From: a virus
Taxonomy: Duplodnaviria; Heunggongvirae; Uroviricota; Caudoviricetes
IMG/VR virus record: IMGVR_UViG_3300028805_000047
Reading direction: 5' to 3' (one strand)
Length of the DNA stretch: 64,000 nt
Shown: positions 1 through 20,375 of the stretch, one piece after another
Layout: every line of letters starts with the position of its first letter
How positions within the stretch are numbered: position 1 is the first letter of the stretch
Notes under the pieces: generated by a model
Told to the model about the DNA's origin: nothing
What the model saw: only the letters and a program-made list of their open reading frames with translations
The model's database searches: none
Made by a program: the position numbers and the translations under genes

Positions 1-1740
1 GTAAATCCGGGTGATACTACAGATACAAACTTGACAAAATTCTTGAACCTTAATTCAGTAAGTGTTCTCGCATCTTATACAGGTTCTTTGATTCCTAACT
101 TTATCAATAAATTAGGTGTTAATATCTGGATTCAAAAATTGATTAATGATGATACAAATTATACAGGTGTCATTTGTTATGAAAATACAGAATTGATAGA
201 AGATGTTAATGTTACTGAAGACGGTACTATAATTGAAAATATCGACTTGATTGGACATAATCTTGCTAAGTATGTTGACAATGAAGAAGAATCTGAACAA
301 ATGGATTCTTTCAGCTTCTTGTCATATGATGTTAATGGTTTGAATGAAAGTAAAATGTTCGAACCTATTGAGGCATTCAGCTTTAGCAATATTTCTTTGA
401 ATCCAAATGAAATTCTTGTTGATAAAGATACTGATGTAAAAGTTGGTGATTATTTTGTGTCAAAAGTTGGTAGTAAAGATGGTGTTAACAGATTGACGAG
501 AGTTTATTCAGTTAATATTATAACTGCTAATCCTGAACATGAAAGTTCTGAAGGCACAATATCATATAAGAAAATAATTTGTTATGATCAATTATTGATA
601 GCTGAAGATAAAGAAGAATCTTATAGTTGTATTTTGAAAGTTAAGACAATTGATGAATTATGTGACACATTACAATGGAAATGTTTGCATGGTTTCTCTT
701 TGAATGCTTCTCATATTCCAGGTAAGGGTATTGATGGTAATAAAAGCTTGAATGAACAACAGAATAATATCTTAGAAGTTCTTAGTCCAGATTCAACAAC
801 TACTAATTTGTACAAAGCTCTTACCGATAAGAATATTATTCAGTTCAGATATTTAGTTGATACATTTGGTAATGGTATTGAACCAGAATCAAAGAGCATA
901 TTTACTAAGATTTGTCAAAAAAGAATATCATTCGGTATTTTGAATGGTCCTTCTATTAAGGAATTCAAATCTATGAATTATCCAAATCCTGTATTCAGAA
1001 CAAGCAATGGCGCAATTTCATCTGAATATATCAGTAAGGGCGGTAATCCACAATTGGCTGCTAATTTCAGATATTCATTGCCTACTGAAGAACAAGGTGC
1101 AAGTTTTTCAGCATATTTTTATCCATATGTTACAATTATGGATAATGGTATAGAAAAAACAGTTCCACCTGCCGCTGCAGTATCTAACTTGTACTATGCT
1201 AAAGGTGATTTTCCATGGTATATTGTAGCAGGTGCAGATTTAGGTGTTCTTGGTGATGGCATAACTGGTACTGAATCAACTATTACGGAAGATAACAGAG
1301 ACTGGTTAGAACCATTCGGATTCAACAGTATTATTCATACTGACAAGTATAATGCAATGATTTACGGTAATGTTACTGCAAAACAAACTCCTAAATCATC
1401 ATTAAGCTCTTGCCATTGTACTGATACTTTAATTTATATCGTTTATACAATTGAAGGTATTTTACAGAGATATGTTTTCGGAACATATCATAACGATGAA
1501 AATACAAGAACTGAAATAAAAAGTCTTGTAGATGCGTTCCTTGAAAATGTTAAGAAAGCTGGAGGTATTTACGATTATAAAACTGTAATGAACAAATCAA
1601 ATAATACTGATGAGTTAATTGATGCGAATACTGGTGTAATTGATGTTGGTCTTGAATTGGTTAAAGGTCTTGAAAAGATTAACAATAGAGTGACAGTATA
1701 TCGTACAGGTGTAATTTCTTCTTTGTCATCTGGTGAATAA
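1..1740 (+). CDS. Large structural protein, 5'-truncated by the window edge; possibly the gp20-like portal by position upstream of the prohead protease/scaffold and capsid genes
   Basis: The track ORF starting at 31 (TTG) is open all the way to position 1 in the same frame. Its position upstream of the protease-scaffold and capsid genes resembles the T4 order 20-67-68-21-22-23. No diagnostic motif was recognised. Confidence 0.35.
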   Translation, partial: VNPGDTTDTNLTKFLNLNSVSVLASYTGSLIPNFINKLGVNIWIQKLINDDTNYTGVICYENTELIEDVNVTEDGTIIENIDLIGHNLAKYVDNEEESEQMDSFSFLSYDVNGLNESKMFEPIEAFSFSNISLNPNEILVDKDTDVKVGDYFVSKVGSKDGVNRLTRVYSVNIITANPEHESSEGTISYKKIICYDQLLIAEDKEESYSCILKVKTIDELCDTLQWKCLHGFSLNASHIPGKGIDGNKSLNEQQNNILEVLSPDSTTTNLYKALTDKNIIQFRYLVDTFGNGIEPESKSIFTKICQKRISFGILNGPSIKEFKSMNYPNPVFRTSNGAISSEYISKGGNPQLAANFRYSLPTEEQGASFSAYFYPYVTIMDNGIEKTVPPAAAVSNLYYAKGDFPWYIVAGADLGVLGDGITGTESTITEDNRDWLEPFGFNSIIHTDKYNAMIYGNVTAKQTPKSSLSSCHCTDTLIYIVYTIEGILQRYVFGTYHNDENTRTEIKSLVDAFLENVKKAGGIYDYKTVMNKSNNTDELIDANTGVIDVGLELVKGLEKINNRVTVYRTGVISSLSSGE

Positions 1741-3933: not shown

Positions 3934-4001
3934 ACATTATAGGAAAGAAAAGAACTTATAGTACAGAGTTAATATAAATATCAATTTTAAAATTTTTAAA
4001 A

Positions 4002-5681
4002 ATGGAAATAAATGACGTAAAAGCACTCCAAACATGGGGTAAACTTATTGAAGAATCTACAGGTATTAAAGATTCTCAGAAAGTTGCTTGGATGTCTAAG
4101 CTTTGTGCTATCCAAGACAACGAAGACAAAATTAGACCAGTATTAGAATCAGCATTCTGGGGTCCATCACTTAATCCTTCAATGACAATGCAAGGTGCAG
4201 GTGCAATTCAATTCCCAAGCGATGGTGATAATGGTTTCTCAGGTGTAAGAAATGGTTCTGCAGACGCAGTTGCTTCTTCTGTTGCGATTGCAATGCAAAC
4301 AGCTGCTCAAACAATCGCTCTTGACTTGTTAGCTGTAGTTCCTATTGCTGGTCCACAAGGACAATATCGTTTCTATGATACTGTTTATGAAGGCGGTCGT
4401 ATCAATGGTGACTTACGTACAGCTGACGGTACTCCAAAATTTACTAATGCAGTTGCTGACCCTCTATTGGTTGAAGCTACAGCAATTAGTGAAAATGGTA
4501 AAGCACTTTTGGAAGCAGTTGTTAATGAAACTTCTGAATCTGAAGTTGAAGGTAATGTAATTACAAGAGGTGACTTTAAATTGACTTTCATTGAACTTGG
4601 TTTTATTTCTGGTAAACCTATCTTCTTGGTAGAACGTACTGATGCTAAACCAGGTGAATTCAATGCACGTAGATTCAACGGTGCACCAACTTTGTATGAA
4701 ACATTCAAAGATGATTTGCAACTTGATCTAGTAAATACTAAAGAGAACCACATTACTGCATTCTCTGGTCGTGATTTCTACGAAAATTCAGTAACGAAAG
4801 AAACTGGTAAGAATCCTTACGATGGTAATTTCGGTATTGAACCATTCGAACGTGAAGAAGGTGAAGCAACTACAGTTAACTTCTTAGGTGCTAAACGTAC
4901 TTCAATGGACATCAAGGTAAAAACTTACCAAGTTGGTTTCTCTGCAACATGGGAACAAATCGAAGATGCTCAAGCTGATGGTCAAGATATTATAGCTCAA
5001 ATCGAAGCTGACGCTTTGAATGAACTTTCACAATCAGTTAACAAGTTGATTCTTTCTAAAATGTGGGAATTGGCTAAGAAACATACTGATATTCTTGAAG
5101 CTAAAGGTGAAGTACTTAACACTTACTTTATGTCAGCTAATGACACTGAAGTTCCTGAAGCTTATGCTGATTACAGCAAGGTAATTGTAGACAATGGTGG
5201 TGAAACTTCATTGACTCTTCAAGCTAGATTATTGAGAAAAATGCTTTATGCTGCTAATATAATTTCTCACGATTCTCGTTTGACTGGTGGTGAATTCTTC
5301 GCAATTGGTTCTACTCAATTCGTAACTGCTGTTCAATCAATCGCAGGTTTAGCTCAAGTGAACTTGCCTAACAATGTTCAATCAGTTGCTGATGCACCAA
5401 ATCCTATTGGTAAGGTAAGTAACATCATGGTTTATCAAGATCCTAACTTGCCAATCGATTACACTGGTGTAATTGTAGGTCGTAAAACTAAACCAAAAGA
5501 TCCAGGTTTGATTTTCTTACCATACATCATGGCTAAGAAAGTAACTACGACTGCAACTGCAACATTCGCTTATGCAGGTGCGATGAAATCACGTTTCGCA
5601 TTAGTTGCTGCAGGTCAACATCCTGAAATGCAATACTTGCGTTTCCACATCGCAGTAAGTGATTCAATCCAATTGATATAA
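4002..5681 (+). CDS. Major capsid protein, T4 gp23-like
   Basis: The N-terminus 'ALQTWGKLIEESTGIKDSQKVAWMSKLCAIQDNEDK' parallels T4 gp23 'LNKWKPLLEGEGLPEIANSKQAIIAKIFENQEKD'. Length 559 aa versus 521 in T4. It is followed by a strong terminator and sits downstream of the protease-scaffold gene. Confidence 0.75.
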   Translation: MEINDVKALQTWGKLIEESTGIKDSQKVAWMSKLCAIQDNEDKIRPVLESAFWGPSLNPSMTMQGAGAIQFPSDGDNGFSGVRNGSADAVASSVAIAMQTAAQTIALDLLAVVPIAGPQGQYRFYDTVYEGGRINGDLRTADGTPKFTNAVADPLLVEATAISENGKALLEAVVNETSESEVEGNVITRGDFKLTFIELGFISGKPIFLVERTDAKPGEFNARRFNGAPTLYETFKDDLQLDLVNTKENHITAFSGRDFYENSVTKETGKNPYDGNFGIEPFEREEGEATTVNFLGAKRTSMDIKVKTYQVGFSATWEQIEDAQADGQDIIAQIEADALNELSQSVNKLILSKMWELAKKHTDILEAKGEVLNTYFMSANDTEVPEAYADYSKVIVDNGGETSLTLQARLLRKMLYAANIISHDSRLTGGEFFAIGSTQFVTAVQSIAGLAQVNLPNNVQSVADAPNPIGKVSNIMVYQDPNLPIDYTGVIVGRKTKPKDPGLIFLPYIMAKKVTTTATATFAYAGAMKSRFALVAAGQHPEMQYLRFHIAVSDSIQLI

Positions 5682-5702
5682 TCAATTTGATTTGAGAATA
5701 CC

Positions 5703-5744
5703 GAAAGTCCTGAGTAGATAAGTCTATTCAGGACTTTCTTTTTT
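5703..5744 (+). terminator. Rho-independent terminator after the capsid gene
   Basis: Perfect 11-bp stem GAAAGTCCTGA/TCAGGACTTTC with a 14-nt loop and a TTTTTT run. Confidence 0.85.
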
Positions 5745-5837: not shown

Positions 5838-6401
5838 ATGAGTACAACAGTAATATATTCAAATGCAGGAGATGTAGATACTTTGTTATTAAAGCTTATC
5901 TGGAAAGATATTAAAGATGTCAAGCTTATCGAGATTACTGAATTTTCAAAAGATTATGAAGATACAGTTGATAATGCTATACAATCTGAACAAGATACTA
6001 TCATATTTTGTGGACATGGTACCACAAATGGTTTACTATTTCCGGATTTCTATAAAAATGAATATATTTTACATGAAAATAATGTTGGACTTATTAAGGC
6101 AAGAAGAGTAATTTGTATGTGGTGCTATGCCTTAGACTTTTGTAAAAACAATAATATCCAAAATTGTTTTGCGACGTCTATGTTTATTTCTAATATTGAT
6201 GAAGCTATTGAAAATTGGATTTATGACGCTAAATCAAGTGAAATAAATGCAAGTACAGAAAACTTTTGTAAAGATCTTAATTACCTTATTAAAAATTGTG
6301 AGCTATCTGATTTTGCAAAATATATAAAAGACAGAATATACAAGAATAATAAAGTTGATACATTTAATAGAAGCAGTGTTGAAGTATTAAATGTTTTTTG
6401 A
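5838..6401 (+). CDS. Hypothetical protein (187 aa)
   Basis: Good Shine-Dalgarno 'aagaggt' 7 nt upstream, directly downstream of the conserved promoter. Confidence 0.6.
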   Translation: MSTTVIYSNAGDVDTLLLKLIWKDIKDVKLIEITEFSKDYEDTVDNAIQSEQDTIIFCGHGTTNGLLFPDFYKNEYILHENNVGLIKARRVICMWCYALDFCKNNNIQNCFATSMFISNIDEAIENWIYDAKSSEINASTENFCKDLNYLIKNCELSDFAKYIKDRIYKNNKVDTFNRSSVEVLNVF

Positions 6402-7085
6402 AATCATTTGATTTGCAATATCAGACATCATAGATTCTGTCAGTTTTGAATTCTTACCTTTCTTAGCAAGGACTGATATATAGTCTTTTAAGTCAAATGA
6501 GGCTTCAATAGTATTATCACCATATTTGGCTAATTCAAGAGACATTTGTGACAAACTTGCTTTTAATGATTCAATCTCAGCATTTAATGTGTCAATTGAG
6601 ACTTGTTGTTCATTGATTGTAGTCAGGTAGTCTGAATTAGCTTTTGTAAGTTCTTCATTTCTAGCTCTTAAATCATTTATATATTCTATTAAGTCTTGTG
6701 AAGGACTATCAACTGACTTAAATTTACCTGAAAATAATTCTGTTTCTACAGCAGAGGTTGTATTATCTACATATCTGCAAGTAATATGATATGATTCAGT
6801 ATTCATTTTCAGAATTTTCTTTGCATTTTCTGAACTAATAAAGAATACAACCTCGCCATTTGATTTATCATAATTAGAGACTTCAGTACATTCAGGTATC
6901 GCTATATCAGAAGTTTCGTCAATAAAGTGTAAGAATAATGTACCGACATTTGATACATTCAATAGCTTTTTATCTGAACTATGAAGTGTAAAAAATTTAT
7001 ATTGATCAAACATTGATAGTTTGATTGAATAAGAATCTCCATTATGTAAATCAGGATTTGACGGTTTATTTGCAATCGTTATCAT
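6387..7085 (-). CDS. Hypothetical protein with a C-terminal coiled coil (232 aa); third gene of the minus-strand operon
   Basis: Tightly packed behind 7087..8166 on the minus strand; heptad-rich C-terminus. Confidence 0.5.
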   Translation of the reverse strand: MITIANKPSNPDLHNGDSYSIKLSMFDQYKFFTLHSSDKKLLNVSNVGTLFLHFIDETSDIAIPECTEVSNYDKSNGEVVFFISSENAKKILKMNTESYHITCRYVDNTTSAVETELFSGKFKSVDSPSQDLIEYINDLRARNEELTKANSDYLTTINEQQVSIDTLNAEIESLKASLSQMSLELAKYGDNTIEASFDLKDYISVLAKKGKNSKLTESMMSDIANQMISKNI

Positions 7086-7086
7086 G

Positions 7087-8166
7087 TTATGCGATGTTTA
7101 TAGATTTACGTTTTGTAAATTCATCTTCAATACATCTCTCAAATCTATCTTTAAACTCGATATAAGACGCCATAAACTGATTATCTAAAATATCATCAGG
7201 TTTTAGCTTATAATAGTTCATGCACAAGTTTTTGATAATAAATTTAAGTATTTGTCTTATGTCATCATGTGATTTTAGAATATCGATAGTTTCTTTATTG
7301 TAAATTTTATCAATATCTATATCATATTCAGAAAAATCAAGTTTTTCCATGACGATAGACTTAGTATTATTATTTTGCTTATAGAATATATTGAATAATG
7401 TACATATTAAGCCTATCTTCATTTCATTAGGTGTGTTTATTGATTTTACAGATTTACATATTTCTTCTATATTTTGTTTTTTACAGAAAGAAATGAAATC
7501 TCTGAATACTAATCTGATTATTGTCGTATTAGCAGTAAAATCTTTTTTTGTTATATCAACTGATTCTTTTATAAGATTTATAACAATGTCTTCAGATGAT
7601 TTTATAATAAGTTTGTATGTAAGATTTTCATTAAAATCAACTTTAAGAATATCAGTAACAGCATATCTTTTGTCAACTATCTCAGAATCATATAAAACTT
7701 CTGTAAGCCTTTCAGACTGTTCAGGTGACAGCAGATTTGAATCAAATAAATTTTTACAGTGGTCAGTATTAAATATTTTTGACCAGAACACAAGACTTTC
7801 CTCGTCTTGCATAATTTCTTTATCAAGAATTATTTGCTTTAATGACAAACCGTTTTGGAATTTATCTGAACAAATGAATATAAATCTCCAGTAATCAGGA
7901 ACATCTTCATTTGAATAAAATCCTGTAAGATATTCTATTTGGTTCTTAAAAATAGAAGATGTTGTTTGTTCAATATATGTCAATTCAACAGGATTTTCTA
8001 TTGAAGATCCTGAATAAAATCTAATAGTGTCTTTAGTTTTTGAAAGTTGTAAAACAGGTTCAGTATAATTCTGTCTAAGAATTACTCTTGATGATTTTAT
8101 AATTTCATCAAATTTCTGCTTAGTGTACTTTTTTATTAAATCTTTAATCGTCATAGTTTTGAACAA
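7087..8166 (-). CDS. Hypothetical protein (359 aa); second gene of the minus-strand operon
   Basis: Overlaps the stop of the upstream ATP-grasp gene by 16 nt (translational coupling). Confidence 0.5.
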   Translation of the reverse strand: MFKTMTIKDLIKKYTKQKFDEIIKSSRVILRQNYTEPVLQLSKTKDTIRFYSGSSIENPVELTYIEQTTSSIFKNQIEYLTGFYSNEDVPDYWRFIFICSDKFQNGLSLKQIILDKEIMQDEESLVFWSKIFNTDHCKNLFDSNLLSPEQSERLTEVLYDSEIVDKRYAVTDILKVDFNENLTYKLIIKSSEDIVINLIKESVDITKKDFTANTTIIRLVFRDFISFCKKQNIEEICKSVKSINTPNEMKIGLICTLFNIFYKQNNNTKSIVMEKLDFSEYDIDIDKIYNKETIDILKSHDDIRQILKFIIKNLCMNYYKLKPDDILDNQFMASYIEFKDRFERCIEDEFTKRKSINIA

Positions 8167-10472
8167 AATTTTTTGAATTCTTCGTAATCAGCAAGATTTA
8201 TATTATTTATAGAATTAAATCCATGCGTATCTAATCTTGAACGGTTGCTTACCTCATTAGGTTTTACATATGTATTGAAACAATAATCAAGTATGTCATC
8301 ATTCAGTTCATATCCTAATTGAGTTTTAAGAAGATACAAGTAAACAATTACAAGGTCAAGCATTGATAAACCGCTTCTTGAATTTATTTCTATACAATAA
8401 ATTTTATTATCTGACGTTACAGCCAAATCTATTCCAATAAGTCCGTTCGCATTTGTTTTGTCAAAAATAGTATTAGCTATATCTTGAATTTTTTCAAGCA
8501 TATCTGAATCAAGCTGAACTAGTTCATATAAGAAATTCAGTCTGTCATCTTTTCCTTTTGTACGAATAGAATTTATTGGATGACGTCTATAACAAGAGAT
8601 AATTTGTTTATTGAAAACAAGTATTCTGTATTCTTCAACAATATCAATCAGTTTTTGATAGATATAATTATCCGGTTGATAGTCTTTCAGAATGTTTTTA
8701 TTTTTATCAATAAAAATACCTTGTGAAGAATGAGTACCTCTTATAGGCTTGCAGATTATATCTGAATCTGTATTTTCAATATCTTCTTTAGAAAGGTTTT
8801 TACAGATAAAATCACAATCTTTGAATGTATCATAGAACTTTGATTTGTCACTGCAGACCTTTAAGACATCAAAATTATTTTTAAGATTTTTTAATGATTG
8901 ATATTTGTTTTTGAAAAATTCAATTTCTGAATTATCAGTATTGATGTAATTCAAAGCAATCATATCATTAAGGTCTTTCTCGTCAGACTTTGCACGGATA
9001 TTAGGAAATTCATATAAGTCTGTTAAGGTATTACGTAATTTAATGTCTCGATGTCCCTTCGGCCAGTCAAGTCTTAAAAAACATATTTTCTTTTTCCAAT
9101 CTTCATTATTTTCATTTAGACGGAATAATTTTTCTCTGTCTGGTGAAACTAGAAAATCTAATTTATGAATCACGTCGGTGCCTATAAGGATTTTCTCACG
9201 GTCATCATTTTTTTCAGATTTATCAATATTTCTTATTGTGACATCAATATCTTTTAGTGTTTTACTTCCGACAGTCAAATCAAATTTTACTATAGGACGT
9301 TTATTCTTTTCGTCTGGTCTCAACTTTATTACGACATAGCCTTCAATTTTCTTTTTGAAGTGGTTGTCAAGTAAGTCAAATGATGCATATCCGTCAGAAA
9401 TTTCAAGATTGTCAACACAGATTGAACAAGTATTTCCTTCTTTACCTGTATCAAAACAACCTATCATTTTAACATTGTCAAGTTTTACATGTTCATTGAA
9501 TGAAACTATTTTTGATTCCTTAAACGTATATTTTACAGGATTAAAATACTTGCTTATAATTTTTACGATACGGTATATGACATTATGCTCACTTGGAGAA
9601 TATAGGGAATTGATTCCTTCAAGACCCGGTGAAGAATTAACTTCAATAACTCTGTCAATATCAGTTTTAGCATCGTGTAAGACATCGACACCGCACCAAC
9701 GACAGCCTGTTGCAATTGCAGCTTTTATAGCAACAAGTTTTTCAGATTCATTTGGAGTATATAGACTTATAGAACCTCCGACAGAATAGTTTGTTCTGAA
9801 ATCATCTTTAGCTGCAGTTCTTTTCATACAAGCTATAACACTGTAGTCATCAGTATTATTTGATAATTCTTTTGACGTACAGACAACGTGCATTCTGAGG
9901 TCATATGAAATGTCTATTTTATCCTGCAACAACAAAAAATCATATTCAGATAATTTATTTTGTGTGAATTTTAAAGCATCTATTTCATTGTAGAAACAAC
10001 ATACATCGTGACCTTTCGAACATTTGTCAGGTTTTATTACAACAGGATATGTTCTGTTATGTAGCAGCTTTATATAATTGTCAATAGTCAGTTTTTTAGT
10101 ATCTATTGTGCTTACTCCATATTCACATAATTTTTCATAAGTATCCCATTTTGATCTGCAGATATTTGATGAAGTCATTTTATTAAAAATAGGAATATTG
10201 TTAGTCTTTGCAAAATTCTGCAGTTTTACATATTGTTTTCTTATTTCTTGAGTACAGTTACTGTTTAATACCCATTTTCTAACAAGTATTACAGAATCTT
10301 CAGAAGTATATTCTTCGTTATTGACAGTGATTGATTTATCTTTAATATCAATTTTATCTTCAACAAGGTTAACTTTTATAAAATCAATATCAAAGTCTTC
10401 ACAGAATTTTTTAAATTGTTTAACAACGTCTTTTGAAGAATCAAGACATGATACAAAAAATAGTTTCATCAC
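8151..10472 (-). CDS. Tandem double ATP-grasp ligase (two RimK-like domains, 773 aa)
   Basis: First half has 'YPVVIKPDKCSKGHDVCCF' (phosphate-binding loop region) and 'GCRWCGVDVLHDAKTDIDRVIEVNSSPGLEGI'. Second half repeats the pattern with 'ICKPIRGTHSSQGIFI' and 'LIGIDLAVTSDNKIYCIEINSRSGLSML'. Confidence 0.65.
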   Translation of the reverse strand: MMKLFFVSCLDSSKDVVKQFKKFCEDFDIDFIKVNLVEDKIDIKDKSITVNNEEYTSEDSVILVRKWVLNSNCTQEIRKQYVKLQNFAKTNNIPIFNKMTSSNICRSKWDTYEKLCEYGVSTIDTKKLTIDNYIKLLHNRTYPVVIKPDKCSKGHDVCCFYNEIDALKFTQNKLSEYDFLLLQDKIDISYDLRMHVVCTSKELSNNTDDYSVIACMKRTAAKDDFRTNYSVGGSISLYTPNESEKLVAIKAAIATGCRWCGVDVLHDAKTDIDRVIEVNSSPGLEGINSLYSPSEHNVIYRIVKIISKYFNPVKYTFKESKIVSFNEHVKLDNVKMIGCFDTGKEGNTCSICVDNLEISDGYASFDLLDNHFKKKIEGYVVIKLRPDEKNKRPIVKFDLTVGSKTLKDIDVTIRNIDKSEKNDDREKILIGTDVIHKLDFLVSPDREKLFRLNENNEDWKKKICFLRLDWPKGHRDIKLRNTLTDLYEFPNIRAKSDEKDLNDMIALNYINTDNSEIEFFKNKYQSLKNLKNNFDVLKVCSDKSKFYDTFKDCDFICKNLSKEDIENTDSDIICKPIRGTHSSQGIFIDKNKNILKDYQPDNYIYQKLIDIVEEYRILVFNKQIISCYRRHPINSIRTKGKDDRLNFLYELVQLDSDMLEKIQDIANTIFDKTNANGLIGIDLAVTSDNKIYCIEINSRSGLSMLDLVIVYLYLLKTQLGYELNDDILDYCFNTYVKPNEVSNRSRLDTHGFNSINNINLADYEEFKKFCSKL

Positions 10473-10559
10473 TAAATATATTTAATCTAAATTATTTATA
10501 TTTAGTCAGTTATTTTAGTAGAAAGCAATTTTCATAAATATATTATAAAAATTAATGGT

Positions 10560-12269
10560 ATGCCAAGTTTTTACGAAGACAGTTTGAACGTTTCTCCAAT
10601 GAATGCATCGCCTAAGTCACTTAGTAATGCGATAAATTCAACGAAGGGACCAGCAGTAACAATAAACAGAATCAGTACTGACGAGAAAAATAAATTACAA
10701 CTATCTGAAGTTGAATTTAAAGATAAAAAAGTTCCTCTTCCTAAAAGTATTTTTAAGGATACTATAACTGTAAATTATAGGACTTTAAAATCTACTTATG
10801 CTGATTTGAAAGATGAAAGAGACAATGAATATAGTTTTACAGAATATTCTGATTATAAAACCTGTATGAAAGATGATGCTGAAGTTCAAGCATTTCTTAA
10901 AGATAGAGATAATCCGACTGTTGAAAATATTATGAAGTACTATAATGGCAGTACCAATGCTTTGAACGCTCATGGATTATGCAGATACAGATTACAGGAT
11001 TTTATATTTTGTAAAGATTATGGAGTAATACCTAATAACAGGCTTATAACATTACGCCGTTATACTATGCCGACATTTGATACAATGTTTGGTTTTGATA
11101 TGTCTCCAACTGATATGAATCTGATGAACAGGTTTGCTAAAAACCATAGTGCGTTATCCACAGCTTGTACATATATAAATGATGATAATAAAATATCAGA
11201 ACTTTTGAAAATGACATTTGGACAAGAATGGGAGCCTGTTCATTCAGAAGTTCAAACCCTTCAAGATCCAAGAGGTTCAATGGTTGATACATTTGATAAA
11301 TGGATAAAGAAGATTCCTGCTATTGGTAAAAGTATGAGTGATTCTACAGCCGATGTTATTGCGAAAGGTTTAACATCGACAGCAACAGGAATTTCTGCAT
11401 CAGAACTTACATTTAATGCAAAGAATAAACTTAAAGACGCCTTTTATCAAAATTATCCAGACGGTCTTTATAATGGCGTCAATCGTATTGAATCTGTAAT
11501 GCGAAGAAAACCTGGACTTAAATTCAGTCATGAAATAAAGCTTACGTTTAGATACAGTCTTAAAAGTTTACAGTATGTAAATCCTAAAATTGCATTTCTT
11601 GACTTAATGTCTAATTTTATGCTTTTAACTGGTAACTATGGTACTTTCTGGGGAGGTTCTATTCATTGGACAGGAAGTCCTGCAGCTCCGACATTTGGTG
11701 ATCCCGAGCTTTTAGTACAAGGAAAATATGGAGAATATGTCCATAGTGTATTTGACGATATATCTGCTTCTTTAAATAGGAAAAATGGAGGTGGAGCTGG
11801 AAAAAAGAGTTTTATGGAACTAGCAACTGAATTTATAAAGGGTTCAGCTGAAGCATTACTTGCTAATATATTAGGCGAAGGACAAAATACAGCAAATGCA
11901 CAAGTACCAAAAGCTTTATTAAAGTCAGATCCTGTTGGATTATGGCATCTTGTTATTGGAAATCCATTGAATCCAATAGCTGTTATTGGTAATTTATGTG
12001 TTTCAGATATTGAAATGTCATTTAATGATGTTTTAGGCCGTGATGACTTTCCGACTGAACTAACATTTGTTGTAACACTTCAACATGGTTTACCAAGAGA
12101 TATTGCTTCAGTGCAATCTATGTTCAATGCTGGACATGGTAGAATTTATGTACCTATTGAAACTAAACAAGGCAGGGGTATTTCAGGAACTGGTAAAGAT
12201 GATCAATTCCCAATGCTGAATGCCACAATAGAAGAAATTCAGGATTTCAAGAAGTTTTCAACGTCATGA
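10560..12269 (+). CDS. Hypothetical protein (569 aa), possibly virion-associated
   Basis: Long ORF with an ATAAATAT late-like box upstream; no recognisable motif. Confidence 0.5.
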   Translation: MPSFYEDSLNVSPMNASPKSLSNAINSTKGPAVTINRISTDEKNKLQLSEVEFKDKKVPLPKSIFKDTITVNYRTLKSTYADLKDERDNEYSFTEYSDYKTCMKDDAEVQAFLKDRDNPTVENIMKYYNGSTNALNAHGLCRYRLQDFIFCKDYGVIPNNRLITLRRYTMPTFDTMFGFDMSPTDMNLMNRFAKNHSALSTACTYINDDNKISELLKMTFGQEWEPVHSEVQTLQDPRGSMVDTFDKWIKKIPAIGKSMSDSTADVIAKGLTSTATGISASELTFNAKNKLKDAFYQNYPDGLYNGVNRIESVMRRKPGLKFSHEIKLTFRYSLKSLQYVNPKIAFLDLMSNFMLLTGNYGTFWGGSIHWTGSPAAPTFGDPELLVQGKYGEYVHSVFDDISASLNRKNGGGAGKKSFMELATEFIKGSAEALLANILGEGQNTANAQVPKALLKSDPVGLWHLVIGNPLNPIAVIGNLCVSDIEMSFNDVLGRDDFPTELTFVVTLQHGLPRDIASVQSMFNAGHGRIYVPIETKQGRGISGTGKDDQFPMLNATIEEIQDFKKFSTS

Positions 12270-12493
12270 TAAAATATATTACAAGGATTTGTCATTTTTT
12301 AAAAGCATTAAAAAATGAAATCAAATTTCGGACGCACAGTACTAAATCTATTGAGTACAAACATAGGTTAGGACATTGTATGGAATGCAAGTATATGGAA
12401 AGAGGCTTGTTTAAGAGATGTTCTGTATGTTCTTGTTTTATTAAATTAAAAACAAGATTTAAATCAGAGTCTTGCCCTCTATATATTTGGTAA
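12266..12493 (+). CDS. Small Cys-rich protein (75 aa), possible zinc binding
   Basis: 'CMECKYMERGLFKRCSVCSCF' cysteine cluster; ATGA overlap with the upstream stop. Confidence 0.4.
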   Translation: MIKYITRICHFLKALKNEIKFRTHSTKSIEYKHRLGHCMECKYMERGLFKRCSVCSCFIKLKTRFKSESCPLYIW

Positions 12494-12530
12494 ATGTTGT
12501 TTTTTAATTAAAATTAAAAATTTAAGAATA

Positions 12531-13748
12531 ATGGCAGAAAAAAAGATGGTTAGTTTAGATGATCTAAACAAATTTATGAATAAGTCTTCTAAATATGGAG
12601 GACTTGTCAGTGAAGGAGCAGTATCAGAGATAACTGATTATATTTCAACGGGTAATTATATGTTAAATGCCTGCTTGACAGGTTCTATTTTTAAGGGAAT
12701 TCCTAATAATAGAAGTACATGCCTCAGTGGTGTGTCTGGTGTTGGTAAAACATATCTTGCATTAAATATTTGTCGTGAGGCACAAAAGAAAGGATATTTT
12801 ATAATTTATTATGATTCTGAAAATGCCGTAGACAAGGAACAGTTTGAAAATTTTGGTGTTGATATACGTAAGGTAAGATATGAACCTGTTCAATCAATTC
12901 AAGAATTTCGTTCAAACCTTACTTCAACACTTGATTATCTTATAGAAGAAAAAGATAAAGGGTCTGATGTTCCTAAATTACTTATTATTCTTGATAGTGC
13001 CGGTAACTTGGCAACACAGAAAGAGATTGAAGATGCTAAAACAGGATCTGAAAAAGCTGACTTTTCCAAAGCAAAAATTATGAGGTCAGTATTCAGAATA
13101 GCATTGACAAAGCTCGGTATCTTAAATTCTACATTTGTATTTACAAACCATATCTATGAAGGTATGTCGATGTTTCCAACAACTATTCAATCAGGTGGTA
13201 AAGGTATTGTTTACGGAGCAAGTCTTATTCTTAATATGAATAAAGGCAAATTGAAAGAAGAAGGAAATAATCAAACAGGTGTAAGAGTTTATGCAGAACC
13301 ACAAAAGAACAGATTTTGCGTACCTACAAAAATTGAGTTCAATATATCATTTGTACGAGGTATGAATCCTTATATTGGTTTGGAAAATTATGTATCTTGG
13401 GAAAATTGTGGTATTGAAAGAGGTAAATTTATAACTCCAAAAGAGTTTGATAAATTACCTGAAAAAGATAAAGAGAAGTATGCTAAATATAAAGTCATTG
13501 ACAGTGAAGGAACTGAAAAATACTTTATACAAAGCGATACTGCAAGAAATATTTGTACTGATTCAGGTGAATCATATCCTGTCAAGGAATTATGGTCAGC
13601 AAAAGTATTTACAGAAGATCGTTTGAAAAGAATTGATGAAGTTATTGTAAAAGCATTATCGTATAATAAAAATTCTGATTCTGATTTAGATGATTTTGTT
13701 GGTGATGTTGATGATGTTGCCGAGGTTGATGAAGAACTTGAATATTAA
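12531..13748 (+). CDS. uvsX: UvsX-like RecA-family recombinase
   Basis: Walker A 'GVSGVGKTYLALNI'. Long collinear similarity to T4 UvsX ('ILDSAGNLATQKEIEDAK...KAKIMRSVFRIALTKL...FTNHIYE...NISFVRGMNPYIGL' against T4 'IDSLGNLASKKETEDAL...RAKTMKSLFRIVTPYF...INHTYE...DVKFDGGIDPYSGL') and an acidic C-terminus. Confidence 0.85.
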   Translation: MAEKKMVSLDDLNKFMNKSSKYGGLVSEGAVSEITDYISTGNYMLNACLTGSIFKGIPNNRSTCLSGVSGVGKTYLALNICREAQKKGYFIIYYDSENAVDKEQFENFGVDIRKVRYEPVQSIQEFRSNLTSTLDYLIEEKDKGSDVPKLLIILDSAGNLATQKEIEDAKTGSEKADFSKAKIMRSVFRIALTKLGILNSTFVFTNHIYEGMSMFPTTIQSGGKGIVYGASLILNMNKGKLKEEGNNQTGVRVYAEPQKNRFCVPTKIEFNISFVRGMNPYIGLENYVSWENCGIERGKFITPKEFDKLPEKDKEKYAKYKVIDSEGTEKYFIQSDTARNICTDSGESYPVKELWSAKVFTEDRLKRIDEVIVKALSYNKNSDSDLDDFVGDVDDVAEVDEELEY

Positions 13749-13756
13749 TATAAATT

Positions 13757-14194
13757 ATGACAAACGAAGAATTAAGTCAAAAGTTTAAGGACAGCATAGA
13801 TAATTGGACTAAGAAGATTAAAGATAACGTTATCGATAAGCTTAAGTCTGAAGATTTGTCTGTACTGAATAATGCCGAAGTTTATTATCTTTCATACCGT
13901 GAACAGATAATCACTGAAACATTCAATATCAGAAATGCTGTTTTTAAACTTAAAGTAAACAGAGACTTACAACAGGAGAAGCAAAACAAAAAACTTATGC
14001 TTTCTTCTGATGTAAGATTGTCTTCACAAGAAAAAAATCTCCAGTTAAATAATCTTATCAAAGAAGAAAATGAAAGAGTTTCATATTATGAAAATTACTT
14101 GATGTTCTTACAAGAAAGTGTAAAGACGCTTGATAATTTTGCATATGTTATAAAAAATAGATACGAAGCCTTAAAGTATAAAGCCGGTTTATGA
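13757..14194 (+). CDS. Possible UvsY-like recombination mediator (145 aa, coiled-coil)
   Basis: Size, location next to uvsX and weak C-terminal resemblance ('VIKNRYEALKYKAGL' against T4 UvsY 'AIKSRGFAIKHIQDMRAFEAGK'). Tentative. Confidence 0.3.
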   Translation: MTNEELSQKFKDSIDNWTKKIKDNVIDKLKSEDLSVLNNAEVYYLSYREQIITETFNIRNAVFKLKVNRDLQQEKQNKKLMLSSDVRLSSQEKNLQLNNLIKEENERVSYYENYLMFLQESVKTLDNFAYVIKNRYEALKYKAGL

Positions 14195-15201
14195 GAACTT
14201 GTATTGTTAATGAGTTATGTGATTACCAAGGTTATTATGAGAATTTTGGTAGAGTTGGGACTGAACCAATAGTACTTAGAGAACAACTTAAGATTGATGA
14301 TATTGTAGGACCTAAAAGAGGGTTTAATGATATTGATAGTTATAAATCGTATAACGAAGTAGATGTAAATGATTATGATAAAGTTTATGTCTATGGCAGT
14401 AATGATATTTACTACAATAATGAAATTGGTAAGACGAGATTTGATGCAAGGAAATTTTGGACAAAAGCAAAGAATGTTATTTTTCTGTCATTAAATAATT
14501 TGTATCTTCCAAAGAATTGGTTTGACAATATCAAAAGCCTAAAAGAATATATAACTGAAGAATTTGATTTTAATGAAATCAAACCGTCAGATTCAACCAA
14601 GTATACGCTTATAACTCCATTCGAGTTGTCAGATTATATAAAACAGCAATTAGGAATGGATGAATACCATAAAATAAATTTAGCTGAATCAGCAATATTA
14701 TATAGGAACAGAAGACTTGATTTATCATTCACTTCGTGTAAGTATGATTTATTTTATGACAGTAATTTTAATGAAGAAGATTTAAAATCCGTAAGAGGAT
14801 ATTTGGATTTTAGCAATAATAATCTTGTCGTTACAAGAAATACTGTGAATAAGTATATATACACATATACAAAGATAAAACAGGAACCAACAGAAAACAT
14901 GCAAAGGTATTTAGAAAGACTAAGTGTAAGTTTTGCGACAATTATATTTGACAATGAAGTAAACATACAGCTTAAAGAAATACCTACAAAACTATATGAA
15001 GCTGCTTCACAATTTTGTTATGTTTTTTATACTGAAAAACTTTCATACTTAAATGAAATATTCAATAATGATAATCATTTAGTTACAGGTCCTGAAGATT
15101 TAGTTTCAAAGCTTAATCATTTACAATCTCTAAAAACAAAACAATACCAAGATATTATATATAAGCAGTATAAAACATTGTCAGGACGTTGTTTATTATA
15201 A
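14191..15201 (+). CDS. Hypothetical protein (336 aa)
   Basis: ORF tiling with start/stop overlap. Confidence 0.5.
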   Translation: MRTCIVNELCDYQGYYENFGRVGTEPIVLREQLKIDDIVGPKRGFNDIDSYKSYNEVDVNDYDKVYVYGSNDIYYNNEIGKTRFDARKFWTKAKNVIFLSLNNLYLPKNWFDNIKSLKEYITEEFDFNEIKPSDSTKYTLITPFELSDYIKQQLGMDEYHKINLAESAILYRNRRLDLSFTSCKYDLFYDSNFNEEDLKSVRGYLDFSNNNLVVTRNTVNKYIYTYTKIKQEPTENMQRYLERLSVSFATIIFDNEVNIQLKEIPTKLYEAASQFCYVFYTEKLSYLNEIFNNDNHLVTGPEDLVSKLNHLQSLKTKQYQDIIYKQYKTLSGRCLL

Positions 15202-15216
15202 TAAATTTATTTTAGG

Positions 15217-15615
15217 ATGACACTTACAGAAATTATTAATACATATTTTAAAGGAAAGGGACTTGGCTTGTCAGATGCAGAAAAAGCTATGAGTTTTTCT
15301 ATAATGAGAAGATATTTGGCAGCTGATTATCCAGATATTGCAAATGAGATGAATTCATTTCATACACCTGCAGTTGCTGCATCTAATATCATTGCTATTT
15401 TATTACGTAAATATACAAAACCTCCAAAGTATGTAACATATAATTATAAGCCTGTAAATGATGAATATAAGTCAAATTTGATAGATATGTTTGAAGCAAA
15501 TTATAAAGATATTTTATTTTTGCAGCAAGTAAACAATACTAAATATAATGAACTTATTAAAAGTTTTCAAAAAGAGGATGTTAAAAATTTGAAAAAGAAT
15601 AAAAAATGGAAGTAA
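15217..15615 (+). CDS. Hypothetical protein (132 aa)
   Basis: ORF tiling. Confidence 0.45.
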   Translation: MTLTEIINTYFKGKGLGLSDAEKAMSFSIMRRYLAADYPDIANEMNSFHTPAVAASNIIAILLRKYTKPPKYVTYNYKPVNDEYKSNLIDMFEANYKDILFLQQVNNTKYNELIKSFQKEDVKNLKKNKKWK

Positions 15616-16955
15616 GAACAATAACATCTTTTCTAGAAAATGAAGTTAGGGAATATGCAAAGGATGTAATTGAAAATAGAGCAATTCCTTCTGTAATTGA
15701 CGGACTTAAACCGACTGCAAGAAAAGTTGTATATATTGCAAATAAAAAATGGAAAACATTATCTGAAAAACCGATGAAGGTATTTCAGTTAACTGGTGCG
15801 GTTGCAGAACAAGCATATTATCATCATGGTGATGCTTCGCTTAATTCAACTATTGTCAATATGGCTCAAAAGTTTAAGAATAATATGCCTTTACTTGAAG
15901 ATATTGGACAGTACGGAACATTACGTTCACCATATGCAGGAGCACCGAGATATATCTCGACGAGACTTTCGTCGAATTTCAGGTTAATTTATAAAGACTT
16001 TGATTTACTTGAAAATCAAGTTGATGAGGGTAATGTTATTGAACCAAAATATTTTTTACCAATTATTCCAGCCTGTATTGTAAACGGATCAAGCGGTATT
16101 GCCGTTGCATTTGCAATAAATGTTTTGAATAGAAATCCTTTTGATGTCATTGATGCATGCAAGGCCGTCATTACAGGTAAGAAGATAAATGAAAGTAACT
16201 TGAAGCCATATTACAGTGATTTCAGCGGCAGGATAGAACAGGATTTAGATAATAATCTTAAATGGCATTTCTTCGGAAAGTATGAAATCATAAAGGAAAA
16301 AACAGTACATATAACTGAACTACCCCCTAATATACAGTATGAAGCCTATGAAGCATATCTTAACACACTTATTGACAAGAAGATAATTGTTGATTATGAC
16401 GACAACTGTTCAAATAATATAGATTATACTGTTTATTTCAAGAAAGAAATTCTAAAAGATTATATAGCAAAGGGTAAGCTTGACAGTCTACTAAAAATGG
16501 AATCGACAGAAACAGAGAATTTTACATTTCTTGACGAAGAATCTAATATAAAACAATTTAATTCTGTAATAGATATTGTAAAGTATTTTGTTGATTTCAG
16601 ATTAGTTGTATATTCTAAAAGAAAAACCAAGCTTATTGCTGATAAGAAACATATAATTCAAATACTCAACAATAAAATTAGATTTATTGAAAATATTGAT
16701 AAGGATAATTCAATATTGCTTGATAAAAGAGAAAATGCGCTTATTGAATATTTGGAATCTAATAAGTTTGATAAAATAGACGAATCGTATTATTACTTGA
16801 CGTCTATGTCTATTTCTTCATTTACCCAAACTAATTTGAATAAATTGAAAAATCAACTTGTTGAAGAAGAAAATGAGTTGAAGGTAATTGAAGAGAAAAA
16901 TGAAAAGGAAATGTATTTAGAAGATTTGAAAGAACTTAAAAAATCTATAAAGTAA
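15606..16955 (+). CDS. Type II topoisomerase DNA-binding subunit (T4 gp52 / GyrA N-terminal-like)
   Basis: 'IPSVIDGLKPTARKVVYIA' matches the GyrA/ParC/gp52 'DGLKPVHRR' signature; 449 aa versus 442 in T4 gp52. Confidence 0.7.
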   Translation: MEVRTITSFLENEVREYAKDVIENRAIPSVIDGLKPTARKVVYIANKKWKTLSEKPMKVFQLTGAVAEQAYYHHGDASLNSTIVNMAQKFKNNMPLLEDIGQYGTLRSPYAGAPRYISTRLSSNFRLIYKDFDLLENQVDEGNVIEPKYFLPIIPACIVNGSSGIAVAFAINVLNRNPFDVIDACKAVITGKKINESNLKPYYSDFSGRIEQDLDNNLKWHFFGKYEIIKEKTVHITELPPNIQYEAYEAYLNTLIDKKIIVDYDDNCSNNIDYTVYFKKEILKDYIAKGKLDSLLKMESTETENFTFLDEESNIKQFNSVIDIVKYFVDFRLVVYSKRKTKLIADKKHIIQILNNKIRFIENIDKDNSILLDKRENALIEYLESNKFDKIDESYYYLTSMSISSFTQTNLNKLKNQLVEEENELKVIEEKNEKEMYLEDLKELKKSIK

Positions 16956-17773
16956 TGACAAATTATGATGAATGCATGATGGCTGAGTCAAAAATTGACT
17001 ATGGTATTAAATGGCTTAAAGATCAAGGAATTGATATTGAAAACCTTGATTTAAGCTTATTTCCTAATCGTGTCATACATTATAAGCTTTATGATAAATC
17101 TGAATACAAACCATATCTGAGTGACAAACTTAATGCAGGTGAAATGCTTGCAAAGCATAATCTTAGTGATATACAAATCCCGATAGTGTCGTCAGGACGG
17201 AGAATGCTTGAACTTTCAGACTTAAAGAATCTCGAAGAGGATTTATATATTATAAAATGTAACCATGCGTCAGGCTGGAACATATTTTTCAGGCCGAGCA
17301 TGTCAGATTCTGAATTAAAAAAGATAGTTGATAAAATAAATTTATATCTTATCTTAAATTTTGCATACATTTCAGGATATGAGTGGCAATATGAAAATAT
17401 TGAAAGAGGTTGGTTGATACAAAAGAGTTTAGGTGAACATCTTGTAGATTATCAATTTTTCTATGAGGATGAAAAATGTATGGCTGTTGATCTTCAAGTA
17501 AAATCTGATAAAAATCATGTATTGCATATCTTTTATGGCGGACCTGATGGAAACAGCCTTGATTATTTCATGGGTTCAATGCCGTTATATAAGACATTAC
17601 CTAAAAAGTTTTTAGAAGTTGTAAATAGAGCTAAAGTTTATGCAGATGAATTAGCTAAAAATATTAAATTTGCAAGAATTGATTTTTTATGTCCTAATTT
17701 TGATAAAATTTATTTTGAAGAATATACATTTTCACCTTATTCCGGAGTTTTAACATTTGAAAGTTATGTGTAG
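16955..17773 (+). CDS. ATP-grasp ligase, single domain (D-Ala-D-Ala-ligase/TupA-like pattern)
   Basis: 'LYIIKCNHASGWNIFF' and C-terminal 'ARIDFLCPNFDKIYFEEYTFSPYSG' resemble the ATP-grasp 'RVDFF..dg.iyl.EvNt.PG' block. Paralogous to the C-terminus of 50197..51594. Confidence 0.5.
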   Translation: MTNYDECMMAESKIDYGIKWLKDQGIDIENLDLSLFPNRVIHYKLYDKSEYKPYLSDKLNAGEMLAKHNLSDIQIPIVSSGRRMLELSDLKNLEEDLYIIKCNHASGWNIFFRPSMSDSELKKIVDKINLYLILNFAYISGYEWQYENIERGWLIQKSLGEHLVDYQFFYEDEKCMAVDLQVKSDKNHVLHIFYGGPDGNSLDYFMGSMPLYKTLPKKFLEVVNRAKVYADELAKNIKFARIDFLCPNFDKIYFEEYTFSPYSGVLTFESYV

Positions 17774-18389: not shown

Positions 18390-19426
18390 ATAAGATTTGG
18401 ATTATAGGAGATACACATTTAGGATATAAGAACGATGACCAAAAATGTCTCGATTCGATGTTTACTTATTTAGAAAAAGTTATTGATAAGGTTACACAGG
18501 ACAAGTCTGATATATTTGTACATTTGGGTGATTTATATGACAGACGAACAACAATAGGCCTTGAAACTGTTGAAAGATCCATTAAGTTGTTTCAAAAACT
18601 TAAAGGAATGAGGACATATATTTTAGCAGGTAACCACGATACTAAAAATTGGGATAATCATGATATATCATCTTTATCTTTTATTCCATATATCAATAGT
18701 GATATTAAAATTATAAGAGATATAACAGAAATTGAAGAATTCGGTAAAAAACTTTTATTAATACCTTATTATCAGACAAGTACAGTATGTGAAAAATTGA
18801 AAGACTATAAGAGTAAAAATTATGATTATTGTTTTTCACATTTGGATTTTAACGGATTGAAACTTAATAAAGCAACCATTGCAAATACTGAACTTTCATC
18901 ATTTGATATTAATGCAAAATATATTTTTAACGGACATATACATCTGTCACAAGAAATTAATAATATCATAAATGTCGGATCCGCTTATGAACTTACATTG
19001 CATGATTTCGGAAATGACAAATTTATTTATTGTGTTGATACGAGTGATAACAGTATTAAAAAATATCGTAACAGATTTAGTCCAAGAATGATTAGAGTAA
19101 ATTATGAAGATATTCTTGAAGATGATAATATTTTTGAAACATTGAAAGGTAATAATGTCATTGTAGTAATTGATAGAAATAAGAACATACCAGAAGTACC
19201 TGAAATTATACAAAAAATTAAGAATACCGCATATTCAGTCACTTGGTCTATGGTAGAACGTGAACGGACTGATATAAGTAAAATACAACAGTCATCAGGA
19301 ACAACGTTTAATGAAAAACTTACAGGATATTCTAAAATGTTAAAAGATGATGAAATTTTTCCTGAAGACGATATTAATAATGTCGAGAAAGTAATTCTCG
19401 ACATATATTCAAACATTAAATCTTGA
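18386..19426 (+). CDS. Mre11/SbcD-type recombination nuclease (T4 gp47-like)
   Basis: Calcineurin-like phosphoesterase motifs 'IIGDTHLG', 'HLGDLYD', 'LAGNHD', 'NGHIHL'. N-terminus similar to T4 gp47 'MKILNLGDWHLG'. Confidence 0.7.
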   Translation: MNKIWIIGDTHLGYKNDDQKCLDSMFTYLEKVIDKVTQDKSDIFVHLGDLYDRRTTIGLETVERSIKLFQKLKGMRTYILAGNHDTKNWDNHDISSLSFIPYINSDIKIIRDITEIEEFGKKLLLIPYYQTSTVCEKLKDYKSKNYDYCFSHLDFNGLKLNKATIANTELSSFDINAKYIFNGHIHLSQEINNIINVGSAYELTLHDFGNDKFIYCVDTSDNSIKKYRNRFSPRMIRVNYEDILEDDNIFETLKGNNVIVVIDRNKNIPEVPEIIQKIKNTAYSVTWSMVERERTDISKIQQSSGTTFNEKLTGYSKMLKDDEIFPEDDINNVEKVILDIYSNIKS

Positions 19427-20099: not shown

Positions 20100-20169
20100 T
20101 GAGTTTATAGTTACATATTATTTATATTTTATATGAGCAATGAAAATTTTTTGAAAATTTTTCAAATTT

Positions 20170-20198
20170 TTGATCCAACTTATGAAAAGTTGTATTAT
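20170..20198 (+). promoter_or_regulatory. Sigma70-type promoter TTGATC-N17-TATTAT (copy 2)
   Basis: Same conserved element as at 5763. Confidence 0.6.
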
Positions 20199-20236
20199 AT
20201 TTACCTCAACAAATTATTATTAACAATTAAATTAAA

Positions 20237-20344
20237 ATGACGATGGGAAAACAAATTAAAACAGTAAAGCCAGTAAAGGAAACATTGGGTTGTCCAGAAG
20301 ATTTTCAAGGTTATCAAAGATTATTGAATGCCTTATTAAAGTAA
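20237..20344 (+). CDS. Small ORF (35 aa, MTMGKQIKTVKPVKETLGCPEDFQGYQRLLNALLK), not in the supplied track
   Basis: Starts about 38 nt after the -10 of the conserved promoter, the same spacing as the genes downstream of the other promoter copies. Confidence 0.35.
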   Translation: MTMGKQIKTVKPVKETLGCPEDFQGYQRLLNALLK

Positions 20345-20375
20345 GATTAAGTTTAACTATTAAAAATAATAATTT

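Follow-up and report, generated by a model that had tools for sequence, protein, structure and literature searches.

A predicted three-module phage ligase: a RimK-family ATP-grasp, a RimB-like domain and a second, divergent ATP-grasp in one chain

The stretch of viral DNA analysed here (64,000 nt, Caudoviricetes; IMG/VR record IMGVR_UViG_3300028805_000047; referred to as the window) carries three minus-strand open reading frames (ORFs) at nt 8151..10472, 7087..8166 and 6387..7085, which are surrounded by about 60 plus-strand genes. The first of them, gene 1, is predicted from its sequence to encode, in a single chain, a RimK-family ligase, a RimB-like peptidase-type domain and a second, divergent ATP-grasp. 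An earlier, sequence-only reading of this DNA had reported the minus-strand trio and its tight packing, and the ORF list bears out both. The stop codon of gene 1 (TGA, nt 8151..8153) overlaps the start of gene 2 as ATGA, and the TAA of gene 2 is followed after 1 nt by the ATG of gene 3. The likelier start of gene 1 is ATG 10469 (772 aa, nt 8151..10469) rather than GTG 10472, and that of gene 2 is ATG 8154 (355 aa, nt 7087..8154) rather than TTG 8166; public gene calls, which come from a Logan contig carrying the same genes, agree on both. Since orthologs of all three genes are found in two related phage lineages, these are real genes and not shadow ORFs. The G+C content of the three-gene region (27–29%) is as low as that of the rest of the window, and a near-DNA search of this region against phage records returned no match. 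The genome had also been described as otherwise unidirectional, which is not strictly so, as a further minus-strand gene (nt 19416..20099) encodes a baseplate-like protein (PHROG 37871, E 1.3e-9).

The 772-aa product of gene 1 is identical to a public protein (P0001) and has orthologs with 46% (P0002) and 43% (P0003) identity. Two complete RimK-like domains had been proposed for it, along with two more ATP-grasp domains elsewhere in the window, and failure of profile searches had been named as the finding that would speak against such folds. All four domains score above their Pfam cut-offs, the 773-aa ORF matching RimK at 81 bits and ATP-grasp_3 at 60 bits. Only the first of the two domains in gene 1 belongs to the RimK family, the second being a divergent, generic ATP-grasp, and between them lies the RimB-like domain, which had been overlooked. 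The motifs FDTG, EVN and EIN are conserved in the three-module protein.

Module 1 (aa 1–310; nt 9540..10469) is, judged by profiles and structural models, a complete RimK-family ATP-grasp together with its pre-ATP-grasp domain. It carries a KPDKCSKGHDV loop and an EVN motif (nt 9636..9644), and is matched by Pfam RimK at 1.1e-22 (81 bits against a cut-off of 21). The TIGR00768 alignment places residues 11–289 on model positions 7–262 of 276, which is nearly the complete model. The AlphaFold2 (AF2) prediction has a pLDDT of 85–95 across the module, and its best Foldseek matches are RimK structures (7qys, 5zct, 7qyr and 4iwx; TM 0.83–0.85), followed by ArgX and LysX; ranks 1–23 are all RimK apart from two ArgX chains. 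A sequence search of the PDB gave 7qyr at 2.2e-12.

Module 2 (aa ~320–443; nt 9141..9512) is, according to profile alignment and a predicted all-beta fold (AF2 pLDDT 65–91), a RimB-like domain of the retropepsin type with an intact catalytic D-T-G motif (nt 9444..9452), and may be dimeric. With a profile of seven sequences, hhalign matched the domain to the RimB part of a bacterial RimBK protein over 120 columns with 92% probability (E 5.7e-7), pairing FDTG with the catalytic VDSG, and LIGTD with LLGRE. All 11 sequences compared keep F340 and D341. PF05618 (cut-off 27 bits) scores above its cut-off for the same domain in the homologs from phages YerA41 (29.0 bits) and Mosig (28.0 bits). In RimB the aspartate of the DTG motif is essential, and the characterised role of the enzyme is the trimming of poly-glutamate on proteins (PMC11957791).

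The following region (aa 444–529; nt 8883..9140) is conserved in the three orthologs and forms a linker or, possibly, a reduced pre-ATP-grasp region. For residues 444–520 the AF2 pLDDT is below 50, yet many columns of the ortholog alignment are invariant. Module 3 (aa 530–715; nt 8325..8882) is matched by Pfam ATP-grasp_3 (6.9e-13) as well as by YheCD and Ddl_C, the ATP-grasp_3 scores in the three orthologs being 49.4, 23.2 and 27.8 bits against a cut-off of 23.2. Its K-P...G loop, KPIRGTHSSQGI, an Asp and the EIN motif (nt 8382..8390) are all kept in the orthologs, whereas the RimK profile matches it only marginally (22.8 bits), and does so in the window protein but not among the hits listed for the other two. 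By these profile and motif comparisons module 3 is a second ATP-grasp that comes from a lineage other than that of module 1 and retains its ATP/Mg motifs. An internal duplication of module 1 was considered and ruled out (BLASTP of module 1 against module 3, E 0.56). A pattern-based scan of viral contigs and of 185,579 reference genomes, which reaches fairly close relatives only, turned up no protein related to module 3 that stands alone.

Other full-length three-module proteins are very few: among about 5.8 billion protein clusters there were only two, on contigs of 62 kb and 239 kb, and IMG/VR added three further contigs of one of the two related lineages. The two-module form (RimK followed by a RimB-like domain, 460–500 aa) has at least 580 relatives on viral contigs, many of them 100–430 kb in size, and a survey of the 80 best of these loci found the RimB-like domain in 77 of 91 ligase-family ORFs. 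The suggestion that such ligases are unusual for T4-like phages holds in part: of 50,697 records of sequenced phages only 29 contain a RimK-type gene. Such genes are nevertheless already annotated there, under the name 'ribosomal protein S6 glutaminyl transferase' in T4-like cyanophages and also in Mosig, Melnitz, YerA41/GN1 and a Lak megaphage, and they are common in uncultivated large phages. What is unusual is the three-module fusion, which is confined to a small clade of large phages.

The same parts also occur unfused. In eight loci a RimK-like gene precedes a RimB-like one that stands alone, and in three loci the RimK-RimB gene is followed by an overlapping, separate ATP-grasp gene, which matches module 3 in BLASTP (4e-5 to 7e-8) and resembles both module 1 and module 3. 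The occurrence of both fused and split arrangements supports the modules working together. Two loci, L163 (nt 4755..5711) and L166 (nt 4753..5697), have a standalone RimB-like domain joined to a C-terminal region in which an acetyltransferase-like motif was noticed by eye; this fusion adjoins a 592-aa RimK-like gene and would be another architecture of the same toolkit. A locus at first taken for a second three-module protein (L109) was rejected, since the long match spans two adjacent genes. A two-module paralog (P0008, 465–469 aa, with a degenerate DTG) is apparently present elsewhere in the same genome and also in relatives (loci L007, nt 8001..12757; L098, nt 6001..10729; and L160). In L007 and L098 a conserved 1108-aa ORF comes next, for which Pfam and PHROG scans gave nothing informative, and this pair of genes recurs in the relatives. 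The L007 copy of the pair is on the minority strand and has the promoter-like motif TATAAATA (see below) upstream. Within the window, a 469-aa ORF (nt 33925..35334) of the same length as P0008 was considered as a fifth ATP-grasp, but is unrelated and has no Pfam match.

The motif TATAAATA, which is taken here to be the T4 late-promoter consensus, occurs on the minus strand 24 nt upstream of the gene 1 ATG (nt 10493..10500), and again within the 3' end of gene 1, 50 nt upstream of the gene 2 ATG (nt 8204..8211). There are 23 copies in the window (for example at nt 3973, 2063 and 20126(-)), 18 of which lie in the sense direction within 80 nt upstream of gene starts, with one antisense; composition-matched 8-mers gave a mean of 5.1 and a maximum of 12. 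The motif precedes the prohead protease gene, the gene for the major capsid protein (MCP; twice) and the minus-strand baseplate gene, and is absent upstream of the UvsX and topoisomerase genes. Two relatives, L003 and L005 (the latter a 62-kb contig), have it upstream of the ligase gene as well, L005 has a further copy ahead of its gene 2 ortholog, and another precedes the paralog. Since the motif is shared with capsid, prohead-protease and baseplate genes, the three-gene operon is probably transcribed late, from a T4-type late promoter. A scan for sigma-70 promoters was uninformative, with 46 found against 35 expected.

Five of seven genes with another shared feature are also directly preceded by TATAAATA. 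These seven (starts at nt 25122, 27996, 29141, 53132, 61230, 62323 and 63319, all on the plus strand) encode proteins that begin with a near-identical leader, ME/KNL(K/Q)TF(K/R/N)(S/G/N)FINEA(A/S), and several of them match PHROGs without an assigned function (17273, 3649). T4 IPIII has the sequence MKTYQEFIAE. With the Glu taken as position 0, aromatic residues stand at -6 and -3 and an aliphatic one at -2, both in the window leaders and in those of the two-module relatives described below. This spacing matches the functional positions of the T4 capsid-targeting sequence. In the latter, residues 4 and 7 serve targeting and residues 8 and 10 processing, and gp21-type proteases cleave after Glu (PMC9026906). 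On this pattern the seven window proteins are likely to be capsid-packaged internal or ejected proteins. A leader of the form F..F[LI]NE[AS] is also present at the N-terminus of 30 of 72 distinct two-module relatives, compared with 6 of 285 other ORFs at the same loci, although this contrast is inflated by the relatedness of the sequences. Its consensus is VL(D/N)F.SFLNE(A/S)K, with Glu typically at residue 13–17 (loci L103–L182), and the six leader-bearing background ORFs are neighbours with the same kind of leader. This suggests that clusters of putatively capsid-targeted proteins include the RimK-RimB enzyme. The three-module protein has no such leader: it starts with MKLFFVSCL, there is an in-frame stop four codons upstream, and the orthologs start alike. 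The paralog retains only MNLLE|SKK of the leader. Because the three-module protein and its orthologs are leaderless, a late role in the cytoplasm is favoured for it.

Gene 2 encodes a phage-specific protein with orthologs at 32–37% identity and has no Pfam, PHROG or NCBIfam match. Its distant relatives form the N-terminal part of proteins of 571–628 aa on other phage contigs, and no ligase was found near them in those loci. Gene 3 (232 aa; nt 6387..7085) has orthologs at 52–55% identity and no Pfam match by sequence. Word-indexed homolog searches with genes 2 and 3 returned near-identical copies only, and neither the longer gene 2 relatives nor members of the gene 3 family gave informative hits in Pfam or PHROG scans. 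The AF2 model of gene 3 (pLDDT 85) consists of a beta-sandwich (aa 19–124), a helix of about 60 residues (aa 130–190) of coiled-coil type and two short helices. Its top Foldseek matches in the PDB are phage baseplate, tail-tip and connector chains (8hqz_T, 9mt4_G/H, 7qg9_L, 6v8i and 4v96; E 8e-5 to 1.5e-3, TM 0.43–0.51), and the named matches in BFVD are BppU_N, the LtfC/p132/Gp6 beta-sandwich and minor tail proteins. Judged by these folds, gene 3 probably encodes an accessory protein of the virion (tail, baseplate or neck). A convergent 187-aa gene (nt 5838..6401, plus strand) runs 15 nt into the 3' end of gene 3.

An exhaustive HMMER search gave 81 representatives of the gene 3 family, with 165 relatives in IMG/VR. 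In 77 of 80 fetched loci there is no RimK-type ligase within 10 kb, the extent of the flanks examined, and the other three are contigs of the L003 lineage. Elsewhere gene 3 belongs to a conserved block of co-directional genes, with large unannotated proteins on one side of it and replication genes on the other. In L005 the ligase gene is about 3.5 kb from the gene 2/gene 3 pair, with five opposite-strand genes in between, and the pair still adjoins a conserved divergent gene (569 aa). The tight gene 2/gene 3 junction is conserved, while the overlap between ligase and gene 2 is not, there being a 27-nt gap in L003. Given the 77 gene 3 loci, the gene 2 relatives without a ligase nearby and the separation in L005, genes 2 and 3 are taken to be probable late genes that lie downstream by chance, and not dedicated partners of the ligase.

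The two remaining ATP-grasp domains of the window are both TupA-like (PF14305, cut-off 25 bits), a family to which neither ATP-grasp module of gene 1 belongs. One is a 272-aa protein (nt 16955..17773, plus strand; 5.8e-13, 49.4 bits) and the other is the C-terminal half (residues 223–461) of a 465-aa protein (nt 50197..51594, plus strand; 1e-42, 146.8 bits), the N-terminal 223 aa of which have no Pfam match. They share 28% identity. The pattern KCNHGSG...RVDF...E.TF.PGSG, which had been ascribed to both, is exact in the protein at nt 50197, but that at nt 16955 reads KCNHASG, RIDF and EEYTFSPYSG. Likewise, one of the two glycosyltransferase-like genes said to precede nt 50197 is supported (nt 48601..49575, TOD1/MUCI70-like; PF04765, 1.7e-15), while the other (nt 49584..50213) gave no signal. 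The family name and the TOD1/MUCI70-like neighbour may point to glycan-related chemistry. The small gene starts on the last base of a GyrA-like gene, and orthologs with 54% identity are present in L003 and L005. By sequence family and gene context, the TupA-like genes are a separate ATP-grasp family in other settings, with nothing tying them to the RimK-type enzyme.

Among known systems, the closest in logic is RimABK of Pseudomonas, a writer coupled to a trimmer: module 1 has the fold and motifs of RimK, and module 2 aligns to RimB with its D-(T/S)-G (PMC11957791). The phage version differs in being one chain with a third module, in lacking RimA, and in being phage-encoded behind a late-promoter-like motif. 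Bacterial RimBK hybrids (DP2392 of Desulfotalea psychrophila; P0012/P0013-type proteins) likewise join the two activities in one polypeptide, and the RimB part of DP2392 is proteolytically active (PMC11957791). In these, however, RimB is N-terminal, whereas in the phage protein it follows RimK, and they have no second ATP-grasp. The two-module phage proteins (YerA41_066, Mosig_00005, P0004–P0009; PHROG 2599, likewise named as an S6 glutaminyl transferase) show the same RimK-then-RimB order at 25–37% identity over residues ~55–447, but lack module 3, and their genes are usually co-directional among replication genes; the leader found in 30 of 72 of them is missing from the three-module protein. 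The second-best structural matches to module 1, LysX and ArgX, are RimK-family ligases that act, with LysW, on a protein C-terminal glutamate. Those systems do without a peptidase domain. A LysW-like carrier was not detected, and the C-terminus of a YerA41 protein bearing the annotation 'LysW-like' is not acidic.

Taken together, these comparisons give about an even chance (roughly 0.5) that gene 1 specifies a single-chain amidoligase and peptidase which would add and trim poly-glutamate-type tails on proteins late in infection, with genes 2 and 3 and the TupA-like genes being separate. A peptide or amino-acid ligation system had been proposed on sequence grounds; the ligation role is the best reading of gene 1, but the assembly of the three genes and the TupA-like genes into one system is not upheld. 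By analogy with RimK and RimB, module 1 would use ATP to attach alpha-linked L-glutamate to the C-terminal carboxylate of a protein, or would polymerise free glutamate. Module 2, dimerised through the oligomerisation of RimK, would trim poly-glutamate and may stimulate module 1. Module 3 could form an additional amide bond at the expense of ATP, as in the priming of acceptors without a terminal Glu or the addition of a different residue. The site of action would most likely be the cytoplasm, late in infection, and candidate targets are host ribosomal protein S6 or a late or virion protein of the phage.

Several observations count against this assignment. Relative to the characterised RimK and RimB, the gene 1 protein falls below the curated cut-offs, scoring 82.9 bits with TIGR00768 (full-length cut-off 143.4) and 14.9 bits with PF05618 (E 0.025; cut-off 27). 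The NCBIfam model of the cofactor ligase MptN (1.2e-22) does nearly as well as the RimK model, both being below cut-off, and for these reasons the profiles do not fix a specificity for glutamate and a protein substrate. Module 3 is modelled by AF2 only moderately well and without a recognisable pre-ATP-grasp domain, and the late timing of the ligase rests on a motif. Among the window proteins no specific substrate with an acidic C-terminus was found, such ends being seen in the DnaB-like helicase (the only one ending ...DDDEE), UvsX and similar replication proteins. The literature searched contained no experimental paper on any phage RimK-type protein. As a separate, speculative observation, the tail sheath protein of the window (nt 31..1740, plus strand) and that of L005 (nt 18396..20909) both end in a single Glu (...SSGE and ...SFNE), as a RimK-type acceptor might.

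The near-equal MptN score also invites a different product, namely a small molecule or free polymer: a peptide or cofactor conjugate of the kind made by MptN/CofF, glutathione-type or dipeptide ligases, or free poly-alpha-glutamate. Module 3, resembling ligases of the Ddl, YheCD and ATP-grasp_3 types, would suit such a role. This is nevertheless judged unlikely, as the top structural matches are protein-modifying RimK enzymes, then ArgX and LysX, and as the RimB-like domain, with its characterised role in trimming poly-glutamate from proteins, is conserved across hundreds of phage homologs. If proteins are the substrate, the enzyme might instead be loaded into the capsid and injected, to modify a host protein such as S6 at the start of the next infection. 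T4 Alt is an enzyme packaged in the capsid and delivered with the DNA. The late-promoter motif ahead of the gene, the leader on many two-module relatives and the seven window proteins with such a leader would all agree with packaging, as would the annotation of the YerA41 homolog as a structural protein (listed as 'Ribosomal protein modification protein*'). The last point counts for little, because many enzymes were detected in YerA41 particles, and the missing leader of the three-module protein and its two orthologs, together with the remnant in the paralog, makes packaging of this particular protein rather doubtful. A broader and tentative possibility, also unlikely, joins the two forms: large phages would carry an undescribed class of polyglutamylation enzymes, in which the two-module proteins are injected effectors, targeted to the capsid, processed by the protease and rewriting the C-terminal tail of a host protein (e.g. 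S6) as infection begins. The three-module protein would then be a derived cytoplasmic form with a new target, its extra ligase allowing the late, leaderless enzyme to write mixed or primed amino-acid tails on, for example, a virion protein.

A single integrated system of ligase, gene 2, gene 3 and possibly a TupA-like protein, with gene 2 or gene 3 supplying the substrate or scaffold, is suggested by the tight packing and ATGA overlap in the window, by the gene order retained in the L003 lineage, by the minority-strand position of all three genes in three lineages, by the invariant ...KNI at the C-terminus of gene 3 in three phages, and by the small TupA-like gene lying within a few kb in relatives. 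Much of this is offset by the evidence already given from other loci, that is, the gene 3 and gene 2 relatives without a nearby ligase, the separate ligase gene of L005, the 27-nt gap in L003 and the different family of the TupA-like proteins. In addition, gene 2 has its own TATAAATA inside gene 1, and neither the gene 2 nor the gene 3 product ends in Glu, leaving an integrated system improbable. Least credible of all is DNA or nucleotide hypermodification, in which modified bases would serve as amino-acid acceptors for the ligase. The neighbours of the YerA41 homolog do include genes for ribonucleotide reductase and dUTPase, and the DNA of that phage is hypermodified; a gene of the window between those for UvsX and topoisomerase (nt 14191..15201, plus strand) has a weak match to T4 beta-glucosyltransferase (E 7e-4, below cut-off), which may hint at DNA glucosylation. 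Against this, the Carin-5 paper likens the thymidine modification of YerA41 and Carin-5 to the SP-15 type (dihydroxypentyl, sugar and phosphate), and a search of it turned up no mention of ATP-grasp, RimK or 'glutam-'. The literature searched gave no link between ATP-grasp enzymes and phage base hypermodification. The RimB-like domain and RimK-like fold point to peptide chemistry, and late timing fits poorly with a modification coupled to replication.

Returning to the writing and trimming of protein tails, RimK/RimB is, among bacteria, the one characterised system for both adding poly-glutamate tails to a ribosomal protein and removing them, and its activity reshapes the proteome. The current study shows that phage proteins with a fixed RimK-then-RimB order are common in large uncultivated phages, often with a leader resembling the T4 capsid-targeting signal, and that one small clade has fused to them a second, unrelated ligase and has the gene behind a late-promoter-like motif. 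If the chemistry is as proposed, these phages would possess a system that writes tails on proteins and has its own editor built in, and it could be tested whether host ribosomes or the virion proteins themselves become polyglutamylated by phages. A compact tool for enzymatic peptide tailing is another conceivable use of the three-module enzyme.

The window is part of a large phage, the gene 1 protein being recorded on a 255-kb contig. Among the products of the window are a gp23-like capsid protein, a sheath and a prohead protease of the gp21 type, along with UvsX and a DnaB-like helicase; its topoisomerase II genes are split, and no tRNA gene was detected in it. The nearest relatives of the capsid protein come from uncultured megaphages and from phages of Tenacibaculum, Prevotella, Chryseobacterium and Flavobacterium, and Shine-Dalgarno-like cores are present upstream of only 2–4 of 64 genes. 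A host of the Bacteroidota type would fit both the capsid relatives and the scarcity of these cores.

A few other features of the window may be mentioned. Directly 3' of the capsid gene is a strong terminator-like hairpin (nt 5703..5738, plus strand) with a 16-bp stem and a T-run. The two topoisomerase II subunits are encoded about 41 kb apart, GyrA-like at nt 15606..16955 and GyrB/Toprim-like at nt 57763..58884, both on the plus strand. In a 92-aa ORF (nt 43287..43565, plus strand) the match to Pfam Resolvase, a model of the resolvase N-terminal domain, is confined to the C-terminal part of that domain (positions 55–137 of 145). A 417-aa ORF (nt 43569..44822, plus strand) follows directly, and the pair may represent a split or degraded serine recombinase. 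Finally, a RlaP-like nucleotidyltransferase, of a family assigned to an RNA repair pathway (nt 23988..25088, plus strand), is encoded near an enzyme of the poly(A)-polymerase/CCA-adding type (nt 26679..27956, plus strand).

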